Source: an archaeon (lineage in GTDB: Archaea > Nanobdellota > Nanobdellia > Pacearchaeales > JAPDKA01). Taken from it: a stretch of 64,000 nucleotides of DNA. The notes below the pieces were generated by a model, which saw nothing but the letters and a program-made list of their open reading frames with translations, was not told where the DNA came from and made no database searches. The position numbers were made by a program, and so were the translations under genes. The stretch spans positions 2,065-66,064 of the forward strand of contig JAPDKA010000003.1 in the NCBI GenBank assembly GCA_029258825.1. Direction: 5' to 3'. Positions 17,029-58,820 of the stretch are shown piece after piece (position 1 is the stretch's first letter; the number at the start of each line of letters is the position of its first letter).

Positions 17029-17133
17029 TGGGCCCGGTCGGATTTGAACCGACGACCCCTGGTTTTCTTAGACCTGCCAAAATGGCAGTGGCCATATAAG
17101 ACCAGTGCTCTAACCAGGCTGAGCTACGGGCCC
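17029..17133 (-). tRNA. tRNA-Ile, anticodon UAU, with an approximately 30-nt intron at the canonical 37/38 position
   Basis: The reverse complement reads GGGCCCG-TA-GCTC-AGCCTGGTTA-GAGC-A-CTGGT-CTTATA[intron TGGCCACTGCCATTTTGGCAGGTCTAAGAA]A-ACCAG-GGGTC-GTCGG-TTCAAAT-CCGAC-CGGGCCC-A. It folds as a standard cloverleaf: 7-bp acceptor stem, D-arm, 5-bp anticodon stem, T-arm GTCGG/CCGAC, positions 34-36 = TAT, U33, A37. The intron contains a CTGCCA/TGGCAG helix consistent with a BHB motif. No encoded CCA. Confidence 0.8.
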
Positions 17134-29483: not shown

Positions 29484-29536
29484 AATATTCATAATTCTGT
29501 TATGAATATATATTCATAACTAGTTCATCACTAGTT
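29484..29536. terminator. palindromic hairpins between the convergent nitroreductase and rtcB genes
   Basis: atattcataa (29485-94) / ttatgaatat (29500-09) is a perfect 10-bp inverted repeat with a 5-nt loop, plus aactag...ctagtt. Archaeal terminators are usually T-tracts, so a terminator function is inferential. Confidence 0.3.
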
Positions 29537-46393: not shown

Positions 46394-46630
46394 GACAGTC
46401 TCTTTGTGGGGCTTGTTCATAGCTAGGCAAGAGAGGACATTATCACATCATATATTTTAGATAGGAGCCACAAAAAGATGAGGGTTATTGCAATAGTTAT
46501 TACAACTGCAGCAAGCTTTTTAGGGCTCATAAGATAATTAAGAATCTGTCATTTTTATACATTTATCTTGTGTCTTTATTTTGAAGTAATAGCCGAAATA
46601 CTTAAAAAGAATTAAATTTTATCAATTAAC

Positions 46631-46912
46631 ATGAACCGGGATCGAATGATGAGGGGACTGAAAAGAAGAAGAAGGAGAAATTTAGAATATCAACTGGGAG
46701 AACTGGAGAAAGAAGAGATAAGGGTGGTTGATGGTATGTATGAAGGTGTTTATTTTCCCATCATATCTGATCTTTTTGGAATAAATCTTTATGTAACATG
46801 TGGTAATTGTAGAAGAGGGTTTAGACGAAGAGTTGATAGACTTCCAAAATATCTCGTATGCCCTTATTGTGGATCTATTAACCGTTTCAGACGAATACGA
46901 AAAGTTTTCTAA
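46631..46912 (+). CDS. Arg-rich zinc-ribbon protein
   Basis: CGNC...CPYCGS C4 ribbon and an RRRRR N-terminal cluster. Confidence 0.45.
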   Translation: MNRDRMMRGLKRRRRRNLEYQLGELEKEEIRVVDGMYEGVYFPIISDLFGINLYVTCGNCRRGFRRRVDRLPKYLVCPYCGSINRFRRIRKVF

Positions 46913-47043
46913 TTGGTTTTTGAGTGCTTTTTTTAGATTTTATCTAATGCTATGTTGATTTCTTTATTAATGCGTATTCCTTTATTTCAACCACCATTAT
47001 GAGGTTATTTTTCTTTCTCCATAGAAAGAAATTAGGTCAAAAA

Positions 47044-50013
47044 TTATTTTTTATGAATTACTTCAAAAATCGATTTAATAGTATCGAACCAATATTTTTT
47101 ATAACCCTCCGAAGGCTTATTTTTATCTTTTGTAAACAAGAAAAGAAATACTCTTATTTTGAAATTGTTATGAGTAAAAGCCTTAGGTTTTTCTTTTTCT
47201 TCAAAGAATTTTCTAAACCAGTCAACTTTATGTTGATATTCTGATCTACCTATGCCTTTTGGATCTACAAACACAATAAAGTAGTTGTCTCCCTTAGCAA
47301 ACCAAAATATAAAATCTGGTTTAAACTTTCGAATTTTATTCGATTCAGGATCATAATAAGGTATAAAAACCTCGTCAAAATATTCATCTATTTTACTGAA
47401 TAACCACCAATCTACAGATATACTTTTTATATTTTTCTTAAGGAATTGCTCTAATTTCTCAATAAATTCTACTTCACTTTTTGTTTTTATCACATGTTTA
47501 ATGTAATCAATCTTTTCTTTTTCTGAAAGGATTAAGGGAACATAATAATGGTTTATTATATGTTTTATTCTCAAATCTTTAAATCTTTCTTCCTTTGAAA
47601 GTCTGGCAAGTTTTTCTATTTCGGTAGCGAATTCGTCTATTTTTATCTCACCTTTTTCAAGCATAATTTTTAACTCCTCTTTTCTCTTCTCAGAAAACCT
47701 AAATTGAGAAACATTTCTTATTTTTTCTTTTAGCTCATTCATTTCTTCTTTCGTTTTTAGAAATACTTTAATTTTCTTAAAATGCACTATTTCCTCCTCG
47801 AGTTTCTTAAATCTATCAAATTCTTCGATATCCAAATTAAAGTGACTTATTAATTTTTGTGCTATTACAAATAAGGGTAAAGTCGGATTGTCAACGATTC
47901 TATAATATGTGTTTGCATTTTGAAAACTTTTTTTTATATGTTGCAACAATTCTACAGACAAATTGTTTTGCATAAGTAGAACTCTATCGTCTATTTCATT
48001 AAAGTATTTTTGAAGTAATTCATAATCTTGTTGAGATATAATGAACTTCTGTGGTTCTTTTATTTGATACAATTTTTTACCAGAGAATTTATAAACAGGA
48101 ATTAAAAGTATTTTCTCTTTAGCTTCTTCAACCACTTCCAATTCAAGAGTTTCTTCTATCTCTTTCTCTATTTTTAATGTTTTTATAACTTCTTCCAGGG
48201 CACTTCTGTTTGTACCGAAAATGAATAACGTCTCTAAAGGCTGAACTAAAAAATCTCCACCAATTTCCATGAACATTTCGTCATCTTCTCCTCTATTGTA
48301 AAGATTTTTTAACCTCTTTCTTCTATCTTTAATAGGTTCTATTCTTACTCCTCTTCCAACAGATTGAATGACGAATTTCTTTGCTTCTGTACCAGTACCT
48401 ATATTTATGAAGAGAATTATATTTGGTCTGTTTGAATCCCATCCCTCATAGAAAGCTCTAGATCCCATTAAAATGCTTATATCTTCTCTTCTATCTAGCT
48501 CCTCAAATACACTCTTATCTTCAAATTGTTCGGTCGGAGTATATTTGTAATCTTTCAAGTTGTCTTTAACCCATTTTAGTGCGTTTCCTATTCTAATTAA
48601 TGCAAATGCTTTATGACTACTTTTCAATTTAAGTACTATTTCTTTATTCGTGCCTGGAATAAGGGTATATTCTACTTGACCAAATGAAGAAGAATTATAA
48701 ACAAATTTTAATATGTCTTGGAGAGTTATCTTTTTTAGAATATCTCTTTGAATGATTAGTGGAATACTCTCATACAATAGCAAAGGTTTTTCAGAAAGTT
48801 CTTGTAAGATTTCCTCTTTAGCCTCCTCAAAAATCTTGGTGTTGACATCACCTTTTCCAATTTTTTCTATTTCTTCAAAAAATAATTTTAGATCTGGTTT
48901 CTCTTGCTTTGCTTCTATAAGATTGACTGTGTTAACTAGAGTTAACATCAATGGCTCGTGATAAACATTTTTTACAACTTTTCTTATCTTTTTTGCAATT
49001 TTCTTAACATAAGTCAAAAGAATCAAAGATTTCAAAACAATTTTTTGCTTTTCAGCTCTATTATAATCTTCCTTTTCCCTAAAAGCCCTTATCTCTTGTT
49101 TTAAAATATAAATGTGCTTTCCGTAACCTTGGGAAATAAACTTTTCTAAGTTAAAGTTATAAGCAGTAGTTATTCTATCGTGCTCATCAGTAAATGTTGC
49201 TGAAAAATTAAATAAAAATCCGTTTCTACTCATTATGGAGTAAATAAATTTAGCTTTTGATTCTTGCATTTTACCTTTGTGTGCTTCATCCAAAATTATG
49301 TACCAGTTACCATTATTTTCATAATTTCTAAAATCTATTCTTACGATTCCTTTCTCGTCCACAACATTTGTTGATTTGTAGAAAAATACACAAATTTGAT
49401 TGAAATATGAAATTAAACTCTCTTTTTTTATTTTATCATACTCTGTCAACTCTGCAAGATTTACTTTAAATCCCCTTTCCATTGCCAATTCATTAAATTC
49501 TTCTATATGCTTCTTTAATTGATTTATTAAATCATCTCTATGAGTCAAAATTAGAATATCTTTCTTCGGAATTTCTCCAGCATCCATCAATTTTTTTAGA
49601 ACTTCTATTAATTTTACTATCAACAAAGTTTTCCCGCTTCCGGTAGCCATCCAAAAGGCGGCTCTGTTTATAAAATTCTTGAATTTTATATTTCCATCTT
49701 CTATTGGATAATATTCCTGAAGAATATTGGCTATTTTTCTCTTAACCTTTGCTAATTTTATATCTAAATTTCTTTCTAAATCTTCATCTAAACCATTAAG
49801 CACATATCTTTGATAAAATTTTGATTTATCTGCTTGATCTTCTTTGAAGAAAAGATAAAGTACTTTAATAGCATTTTTCAGTCCTTCTTGTTGAAAATCC
49901 CAAAGTTTTTTCTTTTTTGAAAAACTTACTGTATCTAATAAACTCCAAGGGGTAGGTAAATCATCAAAATTTATTTCTTCAACTATTGATTGGAGGATGG
50001 GTCTAAGGATCAT
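47044..50013 (-). CDS. res: Type III restriction enzyme Res-like protein: SF2 DEAH helicase with C-terminal PD-(D/E)xK nuclease
   Basis: Q-motif LWDFQQEGL, Walker A WMATGSGKT, DEAH box ILDEAHKG, motif III SAT, motif VI QSVGRGVRI. C-terminal FKPDFIFWF...IVFVDPKG is a PD...D-x-K nuclease motif. 989 aa. Confidence 0.75.
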   Translation of the reverse strand: MILRPILQSIVEEINFDDLPTPWSLLDTVSFSKKKKLWDFQQEGLKNAIKVLYLFFKEDQADKSKFYQRYVLNGLDEDLERNLDIKLAKVKRKIANILQEYYPIEDGNIKFKNFINRAAFWMATGSGKTLLIVKLIEVLKKLMDAGEIPKKDILILTHRDDLINQLKKHIEEFNELAMERGFKVNLAELTEYDKIKKESLISYFNQICVFFYKSTNVVDEKGIVRIDFRNYENNGNWYIILDEAHKGKMQESKAKFIYSIMSRNGFLFNFSATFTDEHDRITTAYNFNLEKFISQGYGKHIYILKQEIRAFREKEDYNRAEKQKIVLKSLILLTYVKKIAKKIRKVVKNVYHEPLMLTLVNTVNLIEAKQEKPDLKLFFEEIEKIGKGDVNTKIFEEAKEEILQELSEKPLLLYESIPLIIQRDILKKITLQDILKFVYNSSSFGQVEYTLIPGTNKEIVLKLKSSHKAFALIRIGNALKWVKDNLKDYKYTPTEQFEDKSVFEELDRREDISILMGSRAFYEGWDSNRPNIILFINIGTGTEAKKFVIQSVGRGVRIEPIKDRRKRLKNLYNRGEDDEMFMEIGGDFLVQPLETLFIFGTNRSALEEVIKTLKIEKEIEETLELEVVEEAKEKILLIPVYKFSGKKLYQIKEPQKFIISQQDYELLQKYFNEIDDRVLLMQNNLSVELLQHIKKSFQNANTYYRIVDNPTLPLFVIAQKLISHFNLDIEEFDRFKKLEEEIVHFKKIKVFLKTKEEMNELKEKIRNVSQFRFSEKRKEELKIMLEKGEIKIDEFATEIEKLARLSKEERFKDLRIKHIINHYYVPLILSEKEKIDYIKHVIKTKSEVEFIEKLEQFLKKNIKSISVDWWLFSKIDEYFDEVFIPYYDPESNKIRKFKPDFIFWFAKGDNYFIVFVDPKGIGRSEYQHKVDWFRKFFEEKEKPKAFTHNNFKIRVFLFLFTKDKNKPSEGYKKYWFDTIKSIFEVIHKK

Positions 50014-50720
50014 AGTTTTTCACCAAAGTGTTTCTTATGAAGCTCTTTAATTAAATCTAAAATGTCTTGAAAATTAGTCTCCTCTATTTCTTTTTTAGTA
50101 GCGATATGATAAAGTGAATGTGCCATTTCATTAGCTCTCTCTTTAAATCTATCGGCTAATTGACATATTCTTTCTACAATTTTTCTTTCACTTTCAAAAT
50201 CCTTGCTATAGATACTAAGATTTTTCAATAAAACATTGAAATCGTGATTTCTTTTTCTATTAAAGTCAAAATACTTTTCTTTATGTTCTTTCTTCTTTTC
50301 CGGATATTTTTTCCGTAGAATTTCTACTATCAAGTTTTCTAACACTTTTCTCATTAATACAAAACAGGCAGTATAACATTTATGGGTGTATGTTTTATTG
50401 ATCTCATTGATATGAGCTTTTAGAAATTTGTTGTTAGTTTCAAATTTTGCAATTTCTATGATTTTTCTTTTTTTATATTGTTTAGGTATTTTAATAGTAA
50501 CCTTTTCTATTTTTATATTTTCCATCGACTTTCTATCTTCTTCTGATAAATATTTTGCAACAGAAATTCCTTTTTTTTTAGCAAATATATGTGCTGCGGC
50601 ATTTATTGTAAGTTGGGGGTAGTCCCTTCGTATTTCTGATAGTTTAGTTCTGATACTTCTTTCTTTACATCCGGTTCTTTTTTTTAAAATTTCTAAAATT
50701 TTAGGATTAAGTCTTTTCAT
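50010..50720 (-). CDS. HEPN-domain protein, DUF4145-like (restriction-system-associated)
   Basis: YTACFVLMRKVLENLIVEIL...FKERANEMAHSLYH has the DUF4145-type conserved helix and Rx5H (RANEMAH). The stop overlaps the res ATG (ATGA). Confidence 0.5.
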   Translation of the reverse strand: MKRLNPKILEILKKRTGCKERSIRTKLSEIRRDYPQLTINAAAHIFAKKKGISVAKYLSEEDRKSMENIKIEKVTIKIPKQYKKRKIIEIAKFETNNKFLKAHINEINKTYTHKCYTACFVLMRKVLENLIVEILRKKYPEKKKEHKEKYFDFNRKRNHDFNVLLKNLSIYSKDFESERKIVERICQLADRFKERANEMAHSLYHIATKKEIEETNFQDILDLIKELHKKHFGEKL

Positions 50721-50994
50721 TTTTATCGCTTGATTTCTTACGTTTTGAATAAAGGTAAGATGAAACGCTTCCTCGGTCTTTATATCCTAGAATATCGGCT
50801 ATTTCTGTTGGTGTGAAATTGAGAGAATGTAGTATTTTAACTGAAGTTTCAACTGTAAATTCTTTTTTACCTAAAATTTTGTGCAACTCTATAAAAAATC
50901 TAATAATCGCATTTAATCTTTTTATAACTTTTATGTTCTCGTTTTCTTCGCTCAAACGTTTTTTACTTTTTCTTTGTTTTTTCATCTTTAACAC
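50707..50994 (-). CDS. mini HTH protein, paralog 4 of a tandem array (sigma70-r4/LuxR/HTH_10-like)
   Basis: A hydrophobic helix LNAIIRFFIEL followed by NFTPTEIADILGYKDRGSVSSYL. Overlaps its neighbours at both ends. Confidence 0.5.
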   Translation of the reverse strand: MLKMKKQRKSKKRLSEENENIKVIKRLNAIIRFFIELHKILGKKEFTVETSVKILHSLNFTPTEIADILGYKDRGSVSSYLYSKRKKSSDKNEKT

Positions 50995-51160
50995 CTTTTA
51001 TTTTACTTAAAGGAAGAATGTGACGTACAGTACTATCGTCAATATTTAAAATTTTTCCAATATCTTTTGAGGTAAGACCAACTTGTGCCAGTTGCAGAAT
51101 TAACAAAATAGTCAATTTTTTGTCGATCTCTTCTAACTTTTTTAATATTTTTTCATTCAT
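50963..51160 (-). CDS. mini HTH protein, paralog 3
   Basis: LTILLILQLAQVGLTSKDIGKILNIDDSTVRHIL. Confidence 0.5.
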   Translation of the reverse strand: MNEKILKKLEEIDKKLTILLILQLAQVGLTSKDIGKILNIDDSTVRHILPLSKIKGVKDEKTKKK

Positions 51161-51386
51161 TTTTCTTACCTCTTTTTAATAAGGATTTTTCTTTAGCCAC
51201 ATATTTTTCGGAGATGTCGAGTATTTTAGCAATGTCTTTATTACTTAGACCAAATTTAGATAATAGTTTTACCCCCTCTTTGATTGTGAGTTGTTTACCT
51301 TTAAGATTTAAAAATATAAGTACACTTAATTTTGCGCTTATTTCTTTGAATATTTTTTCTATCTCCCCTACCATTTTATTCACCAT
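51153..51386 (-). CDS. mini HTH protein, paralog 2 (closest to the LuxR/GerE-type consensus)
   Basis: LSVLIFLNL...LTIKEGVKLLSKFGLSNKDIAKILDISEKYVAKEKS resembles GLxNKEIAxxLxISxxTV. Confidence 0.55.
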   Translation of the reverse strand: MVNKMVGEIEKIFKEISAKLSVLIFLNLKGKQLTIKEGVKLLSKFGLSNKDIAKILDISEKYVAKEKSLLKRGKKNE

Positions 51387-51630
51387 TTAAAGCTTTCTTT
51401 AATTTTTCTCTTCGTTTTTTAATTGTTGAAATCTCAACTGCTATATAGGATGGTTTTTTGTTTAGTAATTGTGCAATTTCCTTATAGTTTAATCCTGCAT
51501 TATACAAGGTTGCAATTTTTTCTCTAAGTGTAATTTCTTTTTCTGTATAACCTTCTCTCAAATCTATAAGTAACGCTATAATCATGTTAAGCTTCTTTAG
51601 TAATTGTTCACGAAATTCTTTTTCTTCCAT
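51376..51630 (-). CDS. mini HTH protein, paralog 1
   Basis: MIIALLIDL...ITLREKIATLYNAGLNYKEIAQLLNKKPSYIAVEIS. Confidence 0.55.
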   Translation of the reverse strand: MEEKEFREQLLKKLNMIIALLIDLREGYTEKEITLREKIATLYNAGLNYKEIAQLLNKKPSYIAVEISTIKKRREKLKKALNGE

Positions 51631-51736
51631 AGTAATATTTTAACTAAATTAAACTTTAAAAACTTTTTGGTTATTGTTTTTTTTCCTTGAAAAATGCATT
51701 TTTCAAAAATGTGAAATTTAGTTTTATTTAGTTAAG

Positions 51737-54229
51737 TTACCACCATATTAACGGTTTAATTATCTTGTAATCCAAATCCTTAATGTTAATCTTTTCTTCA
51801 TCTTCAAACTCAACATAATCTTTTCCAACTTTCTTTATCCATTTTCCAAGCAAATTTGAAAGAGTTTCGGCTATGTCAATATTTTGATAAAGTTTTTCTA
51901 AATTAACTTTTACTTTCTTGTTTTTATAATCAATTTCCAAACCTTCCAATAATTTCAAATCTTTCATAAAAATGTATTGATTGTAAGGGTCTTGTGTTGG
52001 ATCAAAGAAGGGATCGGTATCAGCATATTTCACTCTTCTTAAGGTGTCCTCGTATTGTTCTAATTCATAATACTTAAAAAATCCACCACCTTTCCATCCT
52101 ACTTCTTTGGAGATTCCATAAGGTTCGTGATTCCCTTTTCCTGCTAAGACTTCTTTCATTCTTACTAAAATCCCACCTAAAATTTTTCTTCTTTCATCTA
52201 AGAAAGGATAGAAATGATCTCCCATTTCTATACCTATCCATTTTCTGTTCAATTTATGAGCTACTGCTGTAGTAGTACCAATACCTAAAAAGAAATCTAA
52301 TACTATATCTCTCTCTTTAGTACTTACCTCTATAATTCGTTTAAGAAGTCTCTCATGATTTTCTGTAGAAAAACCCCATGCAGGAACGACAGAATAACCA
52401 GGTATGTCCATCCAATTTGTGCCAATTGTCTTTTTATCCAGCAATATCTTAATTTTGTTATTTTCGATCTTCACCTTTCCTAGCTTGTATAATTTTTCAA
52501 TATTCTCTTGCGATTGTACCCATCTTCTAAATCTAGGTGGATAAAATTTTTTACCTTCTAATATAATAGGATCATTTTCCGCTTTAGAAGACGGACGAGT
52601 GCCTAAATCGACCCATTTTGGTTTTATGTCACCCCAGATAGAATTAAATCTAAATTTATCAGTTTTCGAATATACTAAAAGATTTTCGGTTTCTTCAACA
52701 AGATTTTTATCACCTGTCTTAGGAAGTCCTTGATTTCTTTTGATATCTATTTCATTCCTGAAATTTTCCTTACCAAAAATATCATCCATCAAAAATCTAA
52801 CATAATGATTTCCATGATAATCGATTCTCACATAAATACTTCCTGTATCTTTCAAAATTTCCTTAGCCAATCTTAACCTATTTTCCATCATTGTAATCCA
52901 AGCAGAATCTAAGAATCTGTTAATGTACATTGTAAATTCATTGCTTCCTGTGTTGAACGGTGGATCTATATAGATTAACTGTACCTTTTCTCTAAATCTT
53001 GGTAAAATTGTATTCAAAGCTTGCCAGTTTTCACTTTTAATTAACCAACCATCTAGTTCTTCATCCAAATTATCAAACAAACTCAAAATTTCAAGCTCTA
53101 AATCTTTGAAATACTTTGTATCGATTGGTAAATACTGATATTTTGGATTTAGAGATTTTCCTTTAAGAGTTGTTATAAAAATTTCTTTAGGATTAAACCC
53201 ATCATCAACGATTCCCAATTCTTTCCATTCTTTAATCTGCTCTTTAAAATTAGGATGTTTTAAAATTTTTTCAATAATTTCTATTCCTTTTTCTTTCTTA
53301 GCAATTCTATCTAATGTAATCACATAATTGCTATTCAAAACAAACTTTGGTTTCTGCCAAATTTTAACTAATTCATCTTCAAATTGAGAAATAAAATCAA
53401 TTATTTTGTAAGCAACTTCTTTCAAGACTTTTAGTTGTTTTATCCTTTCTGGCGTAAACTGAGTTTTATCTGAATAGACATATTGATAAAGCCACAAATC
53501 AAATTGCTCCTTCAAGAATTTATTAGCATTTTTATTTATAAAATAATCTATTTCGTTTTGCTTTTCAAAAACTCTAAAAGCTCTTTCTAAAGTTTCTTCA
53601 TCTAATACAATACCCTTCTCTTTTAATGCTTTCAAAATATCTTTTACTTTCTTCTTCCTTCTTCTTTCAGAATAATAAACATAAAAAACTATTTTCCTGT
53701 TTTCTATTCCCTTAAGTTCGTAAATTAATTCTCTTTTTTCCCAAGCCTTTTTATGCTGTAATTTTGATACGTCAAAGAAAAACTTAAAGCCGTTAATAGA
53801 CACTTCCATATTTTTTGGTTGAATGTCGGTTTTGACATAATAAAGCATGTGAGTCTTCCAAAACATCACAACATCTTTATTTTCAGTATAAACTCTTTCA
53901 AAAATCCTCTCACTGAAAGGAGTATGTCTAAAGTAAATAGATCCGCTCTCACTAAAGTATCTTTTAAAGAAACTATAAAGTTTATCAAACAATTCTTTTT
54001 TGAATGCTGGGAATTCTTTTGTTTTCTCTTCAATTTCTTCCTTCAGAATTTTGAAAATCTTATCAAAGTATTTTGATTTAATCCTCATTAGATTTATGTA
54101 CCCAGATTCTCCTTCTATCTCTTCACCTATAAAAACATCTTTTAAGGCTTCAAAGAATCTTGTTTCCCCATTTATAAACTGAATGTGCTCTTCACCCAAC
54201 CTTTTAGGCATACAAATTAAACCCAGCAA
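51737..54229 (-). CDS. mod: beta-class N6-adenine/N4-cytosine DNA methyltransferase (Type III Mod-like) with about 400-aa N-terminal extension
   Basis: Motif IV LIYIDPPFNTG precedes motif I LDFFLGIGTTTAVAHKLNRKWIGIE, the beta-class order seen in Type III Mod and M.PvuII-type enzymes. 830 aa. Confidence 0.75.
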   Translation of the reverse strand: MLGLICMPKRLGEEHIQFINGETRFFEALKDVFIGEEIEGESGYINLMRIKSKYFDKIFKILKEEIEEKTKEFPAFKKELFDKLYSFFKRYFSESGSIYFRHTPFSERIFERVYTENKDVVMFWKTHMLYYVKTDIQPKNMEVSINGFKFFFDVSKLQHKKAWEKRELIYELKGIENRKIVFYVYYSERRRKKKVKDILKALKEKGIVLDEETLERAFRVFEKQNEIDYFINKNANKFLKEQFDLWLYQYVYSDKTQFTPERIKQLKVLKEVAYKIIDFISQFEDELVKIWQKPKFVLNSNYVITLDRIAKKEKGIEIIEKILKHPNFKEQIKEWKELGIVDDGFNPKEIFITTLKGKSLNPKYQYLPIDTKYFKDLELEILSLFDNLDEELDGWLIKSENWQALNTILPRFREKVQLIYIDPPFNTGSNEFTMYINRFLDSAWITMMENRLRLAKEILKDTGSIYVRIDYHGNHYVRFLMDDIFGKENFRNEIDIKRNQGLPKTGDKNLVEETENLLVYSKTDKFRFNSIWGDIKPKWVDLGTRPSSKAENDPIILEGKKFYPPRFRRWVQSQENIEKLYKLGKVKIENNKIKILLDKKTIGTNWMDIPGYSVVPAWGFSTENHERLLKRIIEVSTKERDIVLDFFLGIGTTTAVAHKLNRKWIGIEMGDHFYPFLDERRKILGGILVRMKEVLAGKGNHEPYGISKEVGWKGGGFFKYYELEQYEDTLRRVKYADTDPFFDPTQDPYNQYIFMKDLKLLEGLEIDYKNKKVKVNLEKLYQNIDIAETLSNLLGKWIKKVGKDYVEFEDEEKINIKDLDYKIIKPLIWW

Positions 54230-54335
54230 ACTTTTTTAACCTTTTCTATCCCCGCACAGTCAAAAATCCTGCCGACTCAAAACCAACCTTACCAACCATA
54301 TTATAGAGCTTAATGAATTTAATGAATTTTACGTT

Positions 54336-55580
54336 TTACTTTAGTATGTATTTCCACAATGGAACGTATTCAATTTTATTTTCCTTTTTTTCAATATCCT
54401 CAGTTATTATTAAAATTTTCTTTGGTTTAAATTTTTTCTCAAAATAGGAGATATTTCTTATTTCGTTTTTTCCTATTTTCTTTCTGTACTTAACCTCTAT
54501 ACCAACAACATCTTTTCCGTTAACCACGAAGTCTACTTCCTTATTACCTTCTCTCCAATAGTATTTTGCTTGACTCTCAAACAAAACCAAATTTTCTGCA
54601 ATCTTTCCTTTTTCCTCAAAACCGTAAACAAGAGAAAAACAAGGGTGCGAAGGATAATACCTCTTCAATTTTCTTGACGAAGCCCTCCTAGAACCCTTAA
54701 AGTTCCTCAGACTCTTTATTAAAAATCCGTTCTCCAAATAAAAAAGATAATTACTTAAGGCCTGTCTAGTAATGGCCAACTCGTTTGCCACCTCATTTAA
54801 ATTAATCATTATTCCTGGCATATTAGCAATTATTTCGACAATCTTTCCAACTATTTCTGGTTCCCTAACATTAAAAAGCTGTGTAATATCCTTTAATACA
54901 ATCATATCTATTATACCCTCTTTCAAATATCTTTTTGCCAAAGTTTCATTTGCATTAATAATCTCTGGAAAAGGTCTAAGCAAATAGTTATTTAACTCTA
55001 TTTCTACCTCTCTTTTCCACAACCTGACATTTTCTCTGATTTTCTTAATATCTTTACCTTTTAACTCTAAAAATTCTTCAAACAATAAAGGAGTCAAATA
55101 AAAATAAAAGATTCTTCCAGCCAGGCTTTCCTTAGCTTTTAACATAACATTAAGAGAAGCAGATCCAGAAACGAAAAACTTCATATTAGGAAAAGCATCA
55201 TAATAAATCTTTAATTTATTCTGCCAATCTTTCAATTTTTGTATTTCATCGAGAAAAACAAAAATTTTCTCTTTTTGAAGGCTCTTAAGCAAGATTTCCT
55301 TTTCATAAAAGTCAAAAAGTTCTTCTAAACTTATAGAGGATTCATCAAAAGAAAAATAAAGAATATTTAAAGGATTAATTCCTCTCTTAATAAGATAATC
55401 AATTACTTGATACATCAAAGTTGTCTTTCCTGTTCTCCTAAGCCCTACTACGGCTATTATTTGTCTTACTTTCAAATATTTCAAAATTTCGCTAAAAAGA
55501 TTTCTCTTAAATTCTGGAACAAGTTCTTTCCTTACTTCCCCCTCCTTCCACCAAGGATTAAGCATCTCTATTACTTTCAT
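54336..55580 (-). CDS. AAA+ ATPase, COG1373 family (AAA_14 + DUF4143)
   Basis: Walker A GLRRTGKTT and Walker B FVFLDEIQ. Fourth paralog in the window. Confidence 0.7.
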   Translation of the reverse strand: MKVIEMLNPWWKEGEVRKELVPEFKRNLFSEILKYLKVRQIIAVVGLRRTGKTTLMYQVIDYLIKRGINPLNILYFSFDESSISLEELFDFYEKEILLKSLQKEKIFVFLDEIQKLKDWQNKLKIYYDAFPNMKFFVSGSASLNVMLKAKESLAGRIFYFYLTPLLFEEFLELKGKDIKKIRENVRLWKREVEIELNNYLLRPFPEIINANETLAKRYLKEGIIDMIVLKDITQLFNVREPEIVGKIVEIIANMPGIMINLNEVANELAITRQALSNYLFYLENGFLIKSLRNFKGSRRASSRKLKRYYPSHPCFSLVYGFEEKGKIAENLVLFESQAKYYWREGNKEVDFVVNGKDVVGIEVKYRKKIGKNEIRNISYFEKKFKPKKILIITEDIEKKENKIEYVPLWKYILK

Positions 55581-55584
55581 ATTA

Positions 55585-55642
55585 GTTAATTATAATTAAC
55601 TAATATTTAAATTTTTCGTTAACTATAATTAACTAATATTTA
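55585..55642. repeat. Two 25-bp direct repeats in the promoter of the ATPase gene (candidate tandem promoter/operator)
   Basis: gttaattataattaactaatattta (55585-55609) and gttaactataattaactaatattta (55618-55642) differ at 1 of 25 positions. Each carries a tttaaatatt TATA-like box when read on the minus strand; the proximal copy is about 25 bp from the ATG at 55580. Confidence 0.5.
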
Positions 55643-58699: not shown

Positions 58700-58820
58700 T
58701 GTAAATTAAATATATTTAATTTTTTGTTTAATGCTATCAATCTTTTATAGGTGAAACTAGGATCAAAAAGTTTGTTGTACGGATAGCTGTACACAAGCTC
58801 TGTTTTTGGAATTCTAATAA

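Follow-up and report, generated by a model that had tools for sequence, protein, structure and literature searches.

Four small paralogous helix-turn-helix genes precede a probable HEPN effector gene between mod and res of an archaeal Type III restriction-modification system

On contig JAPDKA010000003.1 (GenBank assembly GCA_029258825.1), from an archaeon of the Pacearchaeales, four very small genes designated H1 to H4 lie in a row between the mod and res genes of a Type III restriction-modification (R-M) system, and the locus raises the question of what such an array of apparent stand-alone DNA-binding proteins does there. The whole stretch of DNA analysed, called the window, comprises 64,000 nucleotides (positions 2,065 to 66,064 of the contig), and the coordinates below refer to it. 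A preliminary description of the window had taken H1 to H4 for products of local serial duplication, encoding LuxR/GerE-like proteins directly upstream of a nuclease gene and possibly forming controller complexes. The answer favoured here, with moderate confidence, is that H1 to H4 make up the regulatory part of a cassette that spreads horizontally, in which autoregulatory helix-turn-helix (HTH) proteins would gate a HEPN effector and Res.

All genes of the locus are on the minus strand, in the order mod, a 106-bp spacer, H1, H2, H3, H4, a 236-aa open reading frame (ORF) and res. H1 (51376-51630) encodes 84 aa, is the first gene of the array and is probably leaderless. For H2 (51153-51386), the likelier of two start codons is the ATG at 51374 (73 aa), which follows a GGTGA motif and is also the one chosen by gene callers; the ATG at 51386 would give 77 aa. 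H3 (50963-51160) encodes 65 aa, carries GAGGT 12 nt ahead of its ATG and belongs to the small-protein subfamily termed F2 below, and H4 (50707-50994) encodes 95 aa as the longest ORF from a GTG or 92 aa from the ATG at 50985, which has AGGTG, resembling a Shine-Dalgarno (SD) sequence, before it. The coordinates and overlapping frames given in the preliminary description were confirmed: the overlaps amount to 8 nt between H2 and H3, 23-32 nt between H3 and H4, 14 nt between H4 and the 236-aa gene, and 4 nt between the 236-aa gene and res, while H1 and H2 overlap by 11 nt or, with the likelier H2 start, are separated by a 1-nt gap.

H1 to H4 are real, paralogous protein-coding genes under purifying selection. 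H1 and H2 have 70 % identical orthologues heading similar arrays in two unrelated metagenome contigs (L001 and L002), where the H2 orthologues (about 70 % identity) also occupy the second position; an H3 orthologue is present in L001 and an H4 orthologue in L002. For H1 and H2 of the window compared with L001/L002, pN is 0.18 and pS is about 0.8 (saturated), and dN/dS between L001 and L002 is 0.08-0.11. The window has a GC content of about 30 %, with many spurious ORFs on the opposite strand, so that chance open frames in AT-rich DNA might be suspected, but this explanation is already refuted and retains next to no probability, because gene order is kept among the orthologues of other contigs, pN is far smaller than pS, all four genes are called by independent gene callers, and conservation is clear at the family level.

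Paralogy was assessed by Smith-Waterman alignment of the six H1-H4 pairs against 1000 composition-preserving shuffles per pair. None of the 1000 shuffles reached the observed score for H1-H2, H1-H3, H1-H4, H2-H3 or H2-H4 (z 4.2-9.8), and the best pairs among the four proteins gave E values of 1e-6 to 1e-8 in blastp and phmmer. The similarity of H3 to H4 was not significant against its 1000 shuffles, and the two are connected as paralogues because each resembles H1 and H2. Recent local duplication is ruled out, since each copy is closer to its orthologues in other archaeal contigs (70 % identity for H1 and H2 and, for H4, 40-51 % to a family spanning several archaeal phyla) than to its array neighbours, which are about 30 % identical to each other. 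It follows that the paralogues diverged long ago and move as one cassette.

The shared architecture of an N-terminal helix followed by an HTH in a stand-alone protein, as originally described, is borne out by Pfam matches and by a model of H4; the assignment to LuxR/GerE fares less well, as that family supplies the nearest weak matches and membership in it is ruled out by score and by the helix count of that model. H1 matches HTH_38 (PF13936, IS30-type) with 34.1 bits (E 2.2e-8), above the gathering threshold of 27 bits, and H2-H4 have no HTH_38 match in Pfam. GerE (PF00196) is matched by H2 (20.9 bits, E 2.7e-4) and H3 (18.5 bits), both under the gathering threshold of 23.5, and by neither H1 nor H4 in Pfam; H3 also matches HTH_23 (E 1.2e-4, below gathering). 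All four proteins are thus recognised as HTH by weak or moderate Pfam matches, those of H2-H4 (GerE, HTH_23, Sigma70_r4_2) being sub-gathering. HTH_3 (Xre type) is not matched by any of H1-H4, and the only related match is a weak one to Xre-like-HTH (PF20432; E about 0.01) in H2 and H3. Apart from the generic HTH_38 match of H1, nothing in Pfam, NCBIfam or PADLOC scored above threshold for the small proteins, and their PHROG matches are weak and generic only; H4 has no family match in Pfam, NCBIfam, PADLOC or PHROG.

The AlphaFold model of H4, built with 21 family members (pLDDT 72), consists of a helix at residues 3-38, three short helices and a disordered basic tail; its recognition helix (72-78) is the last structural element, and the fourth helix of GerE domains is absent. 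Foldseek comparison of this model with PDB and BFVD returned nothing at E<=0.001, and an H4-family profile gave no match to solved structures at E<=1, while a mixed profile of the small proteins gave weak LuxR-type, IS21 and sigma matches together with designed helical repeats, the latter attributable to composition. The nearest fold and profile neighbours are all HTH DNA-binding domains (LuxR type, IS21/IS30, sigma region 4, SIRV1 ORF55), none of them significant. From this model and these profiles we infer DNA-binding proteins in which a long N-terminal helix leads into a tri-helical HTH, with a basic tail at the end. The H4 family is marked by the conserved motifs KRLDALIRLFIE and LTPTEIAKILGKKSATDVSxYLYPKKK. 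A profile built from 13 small proteins retrieved 216 small hypothetical proteins, mostly of H4 type, and an exhaustive search of 1.84 billion representatives yielded 220 H4-type clusters (50 % identity, E<=1e-3), nearly all of 60-110 aa. One large protein with 18 H4-profile matches (P0198, 2539 aa) was discarded as a compositional false positive, as it is made of about 18 near-identical, N/K/D-rich low-complexity repeats and is eukaryote-like.

The array recurs, always followed by a larger gene. The cassette set comprises the window and 18 further loci, all 18 of which have 2-6 tightly packed small proteins and then one larger protein. Clustering placed the small proteins in a group F1 (H1/H2/H4 type; 19/19 cassettes), a group F2 (H3 type; 15/19) and two further groups, a 107-aa winged HTH (wHTH) type termed F3 and a tryptophan-rich wHTH type. 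The larger proteins belong to effector types comprising Swt1-like HEPN, Ymh HEPN, the 236-aa family, CHAT-like, Schlafen/AlbA_2 and DUF4062 proteins, and small-protein subfamilies and effector types combine freely across cassettes, so generic regulators fit better than dedicated protein partners. Named hosts include Aenigmatarchaeota, Bathyarchaeia, Hadesarchaea, Nitrososphaerales and Diapherotrites, with shortened cassettes in Ignavibacteria and WOR-3. The R-M context of the 18 related cassettes is mostly not identifiable, three being near a methyltransferase, ResIII or Mrr-type gene. No description of a multi-HTH-array cassette was found in the literature on archaeal dark matter, integrated mobile genetic elements and Swt1-like HEPN with HTH, which is not proof of novelty; the multi-HTH-plus-effector cassette is apparently undescribed, and is found in many archaea and a few bacteria.

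Several individual cassettes have features of their own. The Swt1-like HEPN effectors of L002, L012, L017 and L019 match the PADLOC model PDC-M34B (1e-25 to 5e-34). The bacterial cassettes (L014, L017 and L019, from Ignavibacteria and WOR-3) have an H4-type gene first, two other small HTH genes and then the effector, a bare 170-aa Swt1-like HEPN protein without an N-terminal DNA-binding domain, and an unannotated H3-type ORF lies upstream in L018 and L019. F3 proteins (L006, L008, L011, L012, L022, L026) are stand-alone 107-aa wHTH proteins that have a homologous counterpart in the AlbA_2 effectors (265 aa), namely their N-terminal domain, and because of this homology the AlbA_2 effectors resemble an array-type module fused to an effector domain. 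In L005 (3829-10920), six small proteins and a Ymh HEPN occupy a stretch of about 6 kb bounded by a gene fusing DUF763 with an integrase and by a second DUF763 gene, and this cassette looks like an element integrated into a DUF763 gene.

The larger gene of the window cassette encodes a 236-aa protein (50010-50720) and intervenes between H4 and res, contrary to the first description, in which the nuclease gene came immediately after the array. Its family has 185 homologues of 53-74 % identity in several archaeal phyla, with small-HTH genes upstream in every context read, and is covered by no Pfam, NCBIfam or PADLOC model. The protein is laid out as a small helical N-terminal domain, a linker and a C-terminal probable HEPN domain. 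In the AlphaFold model (pLDDT 86), three helices form an N-terminal domain similar to DUF2240 and to the AROD domain of P. abyssi RPA, and the C-terminal part is a helical bundle. Against Pfam DUF4145 the protein of the window reaches 15.6 bits, short of the gathering threshold of 23.1, and in PADLOC it has no PDC-M34B match. The motif [KR]xxANxx[TA]H is conserved in the family, with the His invariant; we take its spacing to be that of DUF4145, partly from the Pfam signature and partly from one protein found between another mod-res pair (L041). Profile-profile comparison of the family with Swt1-like HEPN effectors revealed no link, and the HEPN assignment therefore rests on the sub-threshold DUF4145 matches, the fold neighbours and the motif, which make a DUF4145-like HEPN protein the probable identification.

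The genes on either side belong, by their sequences, to a Type III R-M system. Next to the cassette on its upstream side, mod (51737-54229) encodes a DNA methyltransferase of 824-830 aa that matches Pfam N6_N4_Mtase (2.9e-40) and, across the full profile, PADLOC MTase_III (5.1e-296); downstream, res (47044-50013) encodes a 989-aa restriction helicase/nuclease (Pfam ResIII, 6.4e-16). Res matches no PADLOC restriction-enzyme model at E<=0.01, and a C-terminal YagJ match appears in its Pfam listing. The res ATG is preceded by GGTGA at 11 nt, and the gene is probably co-transcribed with the array because the end of the 236-aa gene and its own start share 4 nt. Twenty res orthologues were recovered. 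Orthologous mod-res pairs (L028-L047) are adjacent with gaps of 43-180 bp or are split by unrelated accessory genes, namely a ZnR-DUF4145 protein (L041), an RNKIAH HEPN (L037), RhuM (L039), a transglutaminase-like membrane protein (L031, L042) or small unknown genes, and in L035 a 236-aa gene abuts res as in the window. Because orthologous loci are empty or differently filled, the mod-res junction is a variable slot, which the window fills with the complete cassette of array and HEPN gene. That R-M operons can contain HEPN and RhuM genes is known from earlier work (Anantharaman et al. 2013, PMC3710099). The island formed by the R-M genes, the cassette and a neighbouring ATPase gene (46500-55500) has a GC content of 26-30 %, against 33-38 % in its flanks, which fits horizontal acquisition.

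Upstream of H1, the 106-bp spacer (51631-51736), which the preliminary description had singled out for an operator search, contains a predicted promoter and two kinds of candidate operator. The TATA-like box TTTAAA (51655-51660, minus strand) lies at -30 to -25 from the H1 ATG and is invariant in the three H1-led cassettes (window, L001 and L002); this is the archaeal TATA spacing and implies a leaderless H1 transcript. The distal candidate operator (51716-51735, minus strand; -105 to -86) consists of TTAACTAAAT and a second AACTAAAT 10 bp downstream, which in the window forms a direct repeat one helical turn away. The proximal candidate, ATTTAGTTAA (51640-51649, minus strand; -19 to -10), lies between the TATA box and the start codon and is an exact inverted copy of the distal box; its TTTAGTT is invariant in the same three cassettes. 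Aligned upstream regions show TAACTAAAT at about -105 and its inverted copy, which reads ATTTAGTTA at -19 to -11 in the window, to be likewise invariant in the window, L001 and L002. Three of the five copies of AACTAAAT in the 64-kb window fall in the spacer.

The other kind of candidate is a perfect 20-bp palindrome, TTGAAAAATGCATTTTTCAA (51687-51706, no strand), between the distal box and the TATA box. Palindromes of this class are expected about 0.3 times per window of such composition, and four were seen. The palindrome is not conserved in L001 or L002 and its half-site is not enriched elsewhere; it may be a second operator or an element of the mod 3' end, and a role as an RNA terminator hairpin was rejected, the predicted structure being weak (-6.9 kcal/mol, z -0.9). 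SD-like GGTG(A) or GAGGT motifs stand at -10 to -12 ahead of H2, H3, H4 and res, and none stands before H1. These motifs, the overlapping stops and starts, and the finding of no strong T-run inside the array suggest a single leaderless operon from H1 to res, transcribed from the TATA promoter.

Related signals were noted elsewhere in the window. The region at 55579-55636, upstream of an AAA_14/DUF4143 ATPase gene (54336-55580, minus strand), has three of the seven window copies of TTAACTAA and a perfect 28-bp palindrome, ATATTAGTTAATTATAATTAACTAATAT, that abuts the ATG, with a TTTAAA box just upstream. The half-site of this palindrome, ATTAGTTAA, differs by one T from the proximal box ATTTAGTTAA of H1, and the ATPase gene and the H1 operon may therefore share a regulator. 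Two more perfect palindromes of at least 20 bp are GTTATGAATATATATTCATAAC (29499-29520) and AAATTAAATATATTTAATTT (58703-58722). As to the remainder of the window, uL3, uL4 and AlaRS match archaeal-type models, and a 105-nt tRNA gene (17029-17133), probably intron-bearing, was found as an Rfam match over the whole model and was missed by ARAGORN in bacterial mode. Together with the GC content of about 30 %, these matches support an archaeal host.

The reading favoured here combines these elements as follows. A cassette of the kind that has 2-6 helix+HTH proteins followed by one interchangeable, probably toxic effector occupies the accessory slot that separates mod from res and varies among orthologous loci. 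Transcription would probably yield one leaderless polycistronic mRNA covering the array, the HEPN gene and res from the TATA promoter upstream of H1, and one or more of the HTH proteins would bind the inverted TAACTAAAT boxes that bracket it. Archaeal repressors commonly block polymerase recruitment between the TATA box and the start site, and a protein on the proximal box, which has this position, would occlude the start site. Through such binding the operon would control its own expression, including that of the HEPN effector and, as a by-product, of Res. Binding at the boxes, co-transcription and toxicity of the effector are here inferred.

Several observations weigh against this reading. 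The host is uncultivated, and the regulation of the array, the HEPN gene and res is a prediction from sequence. No single HTH protein can be linked to the boxes, and the repressor model leaves unexplained why one small operon should need 2-6 different regulators. The candidate motif TAACTAA is 24-fold enriched upstream of arrays, yet in a minority of loci; it is absent upstream of most other cassettes, its occurrence in L019 falls within an unannotated small ORF, and one operator common to all cassettes was accordingly rejected. Archaeal effectors carry DNA-binding-type N-terminal domains of their own, which hints at something beyond simple repression. The effector identification is also exposed: the DUF4145 matches, present in 17/24 family members, are all sub-threshold (best E 2.2e-4), the best PDB neighbours of the helical bundle are HEPN proteins at a non-significant Foldseek E>0.1, and, at the basic position of the motif, most members carry Lys in place of the usual HEPN arginine, which the window protein retains.

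The position of the array between mod and res, the probable co-transcription of res and the candidate operators upstream, including a perfect palindrome, are what four dedicated controller (C) proteins timing Res relative to Mod would lead one to expect. This explanation is nevertheless improbable, as the same array types occur mostly outside identifiable R-M systems with non-R-M effectors, orthologous mod-res pairs lack the array, none of the four proteins matches the Xre/HTH_3 type that defines known C proteins, and the conserved downstream partner is the HEPN gene rather than res. Of the controller role first proposed, a regulatory function thus remains the best reading, and the tie to R-M does not stand. 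The same effector types, being of toxin and abortive-infection classes (HEPN, CHAT, Schlafen/AlbA_2, DUF4062), could instead point to antitoxins or adaptors, whose N-terminal helices would assemble hetero-oligomers that bind the effector and either neutralise it or license it, in the manner of type II/IV toxin-antitoxin (TA) and abortive-infection systems, and whose DNA binding would serve only autoregulation or the sensing of foreign DNA. Tight, often overlapping packing as in TA operons, the long amphipathic N-terminal helix conserved in every small protein, and the homology of the F3 107-aa wHTH to the AlbA_2 effector N-terminus, which would let effectors and array members act at common interaction sites or DNA sites, speak for this. 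The protein adjacent to the effector is, however, not matched to effector type: H4-type proteins are found ahead of HEPN_Swt1, AlbA_2, CHAT and 236-family effectors, and the same position is in other cases taken by H3-type or W-rich wHTH proteins, so that specific toxin-antitoxin contacts are disfavoured; the bacterial cassettes, moreover, use a bare 170-aa HEPN without an N-terminal docking domain. We consider an antitoxin or adaptor role unlikely.

A small probability is assigned to the array being the regulatory or maintenance region of an integrative element or plasmid remnant (immunity, excision, copy control), with the effector as addiction or defence cargo and the array without function for R-M. 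Tyrosine integrases flank or adjoin the cassettes of L021, L024 and L005, the last of which is placed between two parts of a DUF763 gene, and the L016 cassette has a 480-aa gene beside it; horizontal transfer is indicated by the distribution over archaeal phyla and into bacteria, the 236-aa family keeping 53-74 % identity, and the lower GC content of the window island (26-29 %) is in line with it. Against this, no integrase, replication gene or terminal repeats adjoin the window cassette, many cassettes lie amid ordinary chromosomal genes, and a search of the 2.9 million viral contigs of IMG/VR with three peptide patterns found no relatives. A viral origin was set aside on that result and on the weak, generic PHROG matches. 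An origin in a mobile element overlaps with the regulatory-cassette reading favoured here and does not exclude it.

A wider proposal can be put forward tentatively, and is itself rather doubtful: the cassettes may form an undescribed, mainly archaeal class of mobile conflict (defence or addiction) cassette, in which combinatorial sets of paralogous helix+HTH proteins act together in DNA recognition or licensing on behalf of interchangeable effectors (HEPN RNases, CHAT protease, Schlafen/AlbA_2, DUF4062), present in this archaeon as a regulated RNase layer on Type III R-M with Res under its control. If true, several small helix+HTH genes followed by one effector gene would be an easily recognised mark of uncharacterised conflict modules in poorly studied archaea (DPANN, Bathyarchaeia, Hadesarchaea, Thaumarchaeota) and some bacteria, and a handle for finding new effectors by guilt-by-association. 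The locus would also lend itself to studying how several repressors act at one leaderless archaeal promoter, and would be a concrete example of accessory toxins with their own regulators plugging into the Type III mod-res slot.

Among known systems, the HTH part of H1-H4 comes closest in sequence and fold to the DNA-binding domains of LuxR/GerE, sigma-70 region 4 and IS30 type (HTH_38), and sigma regions 4.1/4.2 resemble the H proteins in having a helix ahead of the HTH. The H proteins differ in being stand-alone, without receiver, sigma or transposase domains; only H1 exceeds a Pfam threshold, and the H4 model has no helix after the recognition helix. C proteins are likewise small HTH proteins encoded upstream of a restriction gene, and the likeness extends to probable autoregulation through repeated or palindromic sites, here candidate sites, in their own promoter. 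They are, however, single Xre-type HTH_3 proteins of Type II systems, whereas the window has four paralogues of another HTH type, nearer to sigma region 4, IS30 and LuxR, which occur mostly outside R-M and here have an archaeal TATA promoter. Type II/IV TA and abortive-infection modules (AbiEi/AbiEii, HEPN-MNT) also couple small DNA-binding genes translationally to a downstream toxin-class effector, are horizontally mobile and often lie in defence islands; the cassettes differ from them in having 2-6 small proteins rather than one, no nucleotidyltransferase partner for HEPN, and a combinatorial rather than fixed pairing. Component B of PDC-M34, for which no describing paper was found in the literature search, is matched by the Swt1-like HEPN effectors of related cassettes, while the 236-aa effector of the window is without a match and the small HTH proteins match no PADLOC model. 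The HEPN proteins of R-M systems (DUF4145, Ymh, Abi2/Swt1; Anantharaman et al. 2013, PMC3710099) share with the window a probable DUF4145-like HEPN between mod and res and the proposed logic of a second, RNA-level or suicidal layer of defence on R-M, and that survey, as far as it was searched, describes no small-HTH array beside them. The HEPN of the window, by comparison, is part of a self-contained cassette with its own promoter, and in its family the catalytic arginine is mostly lysine.

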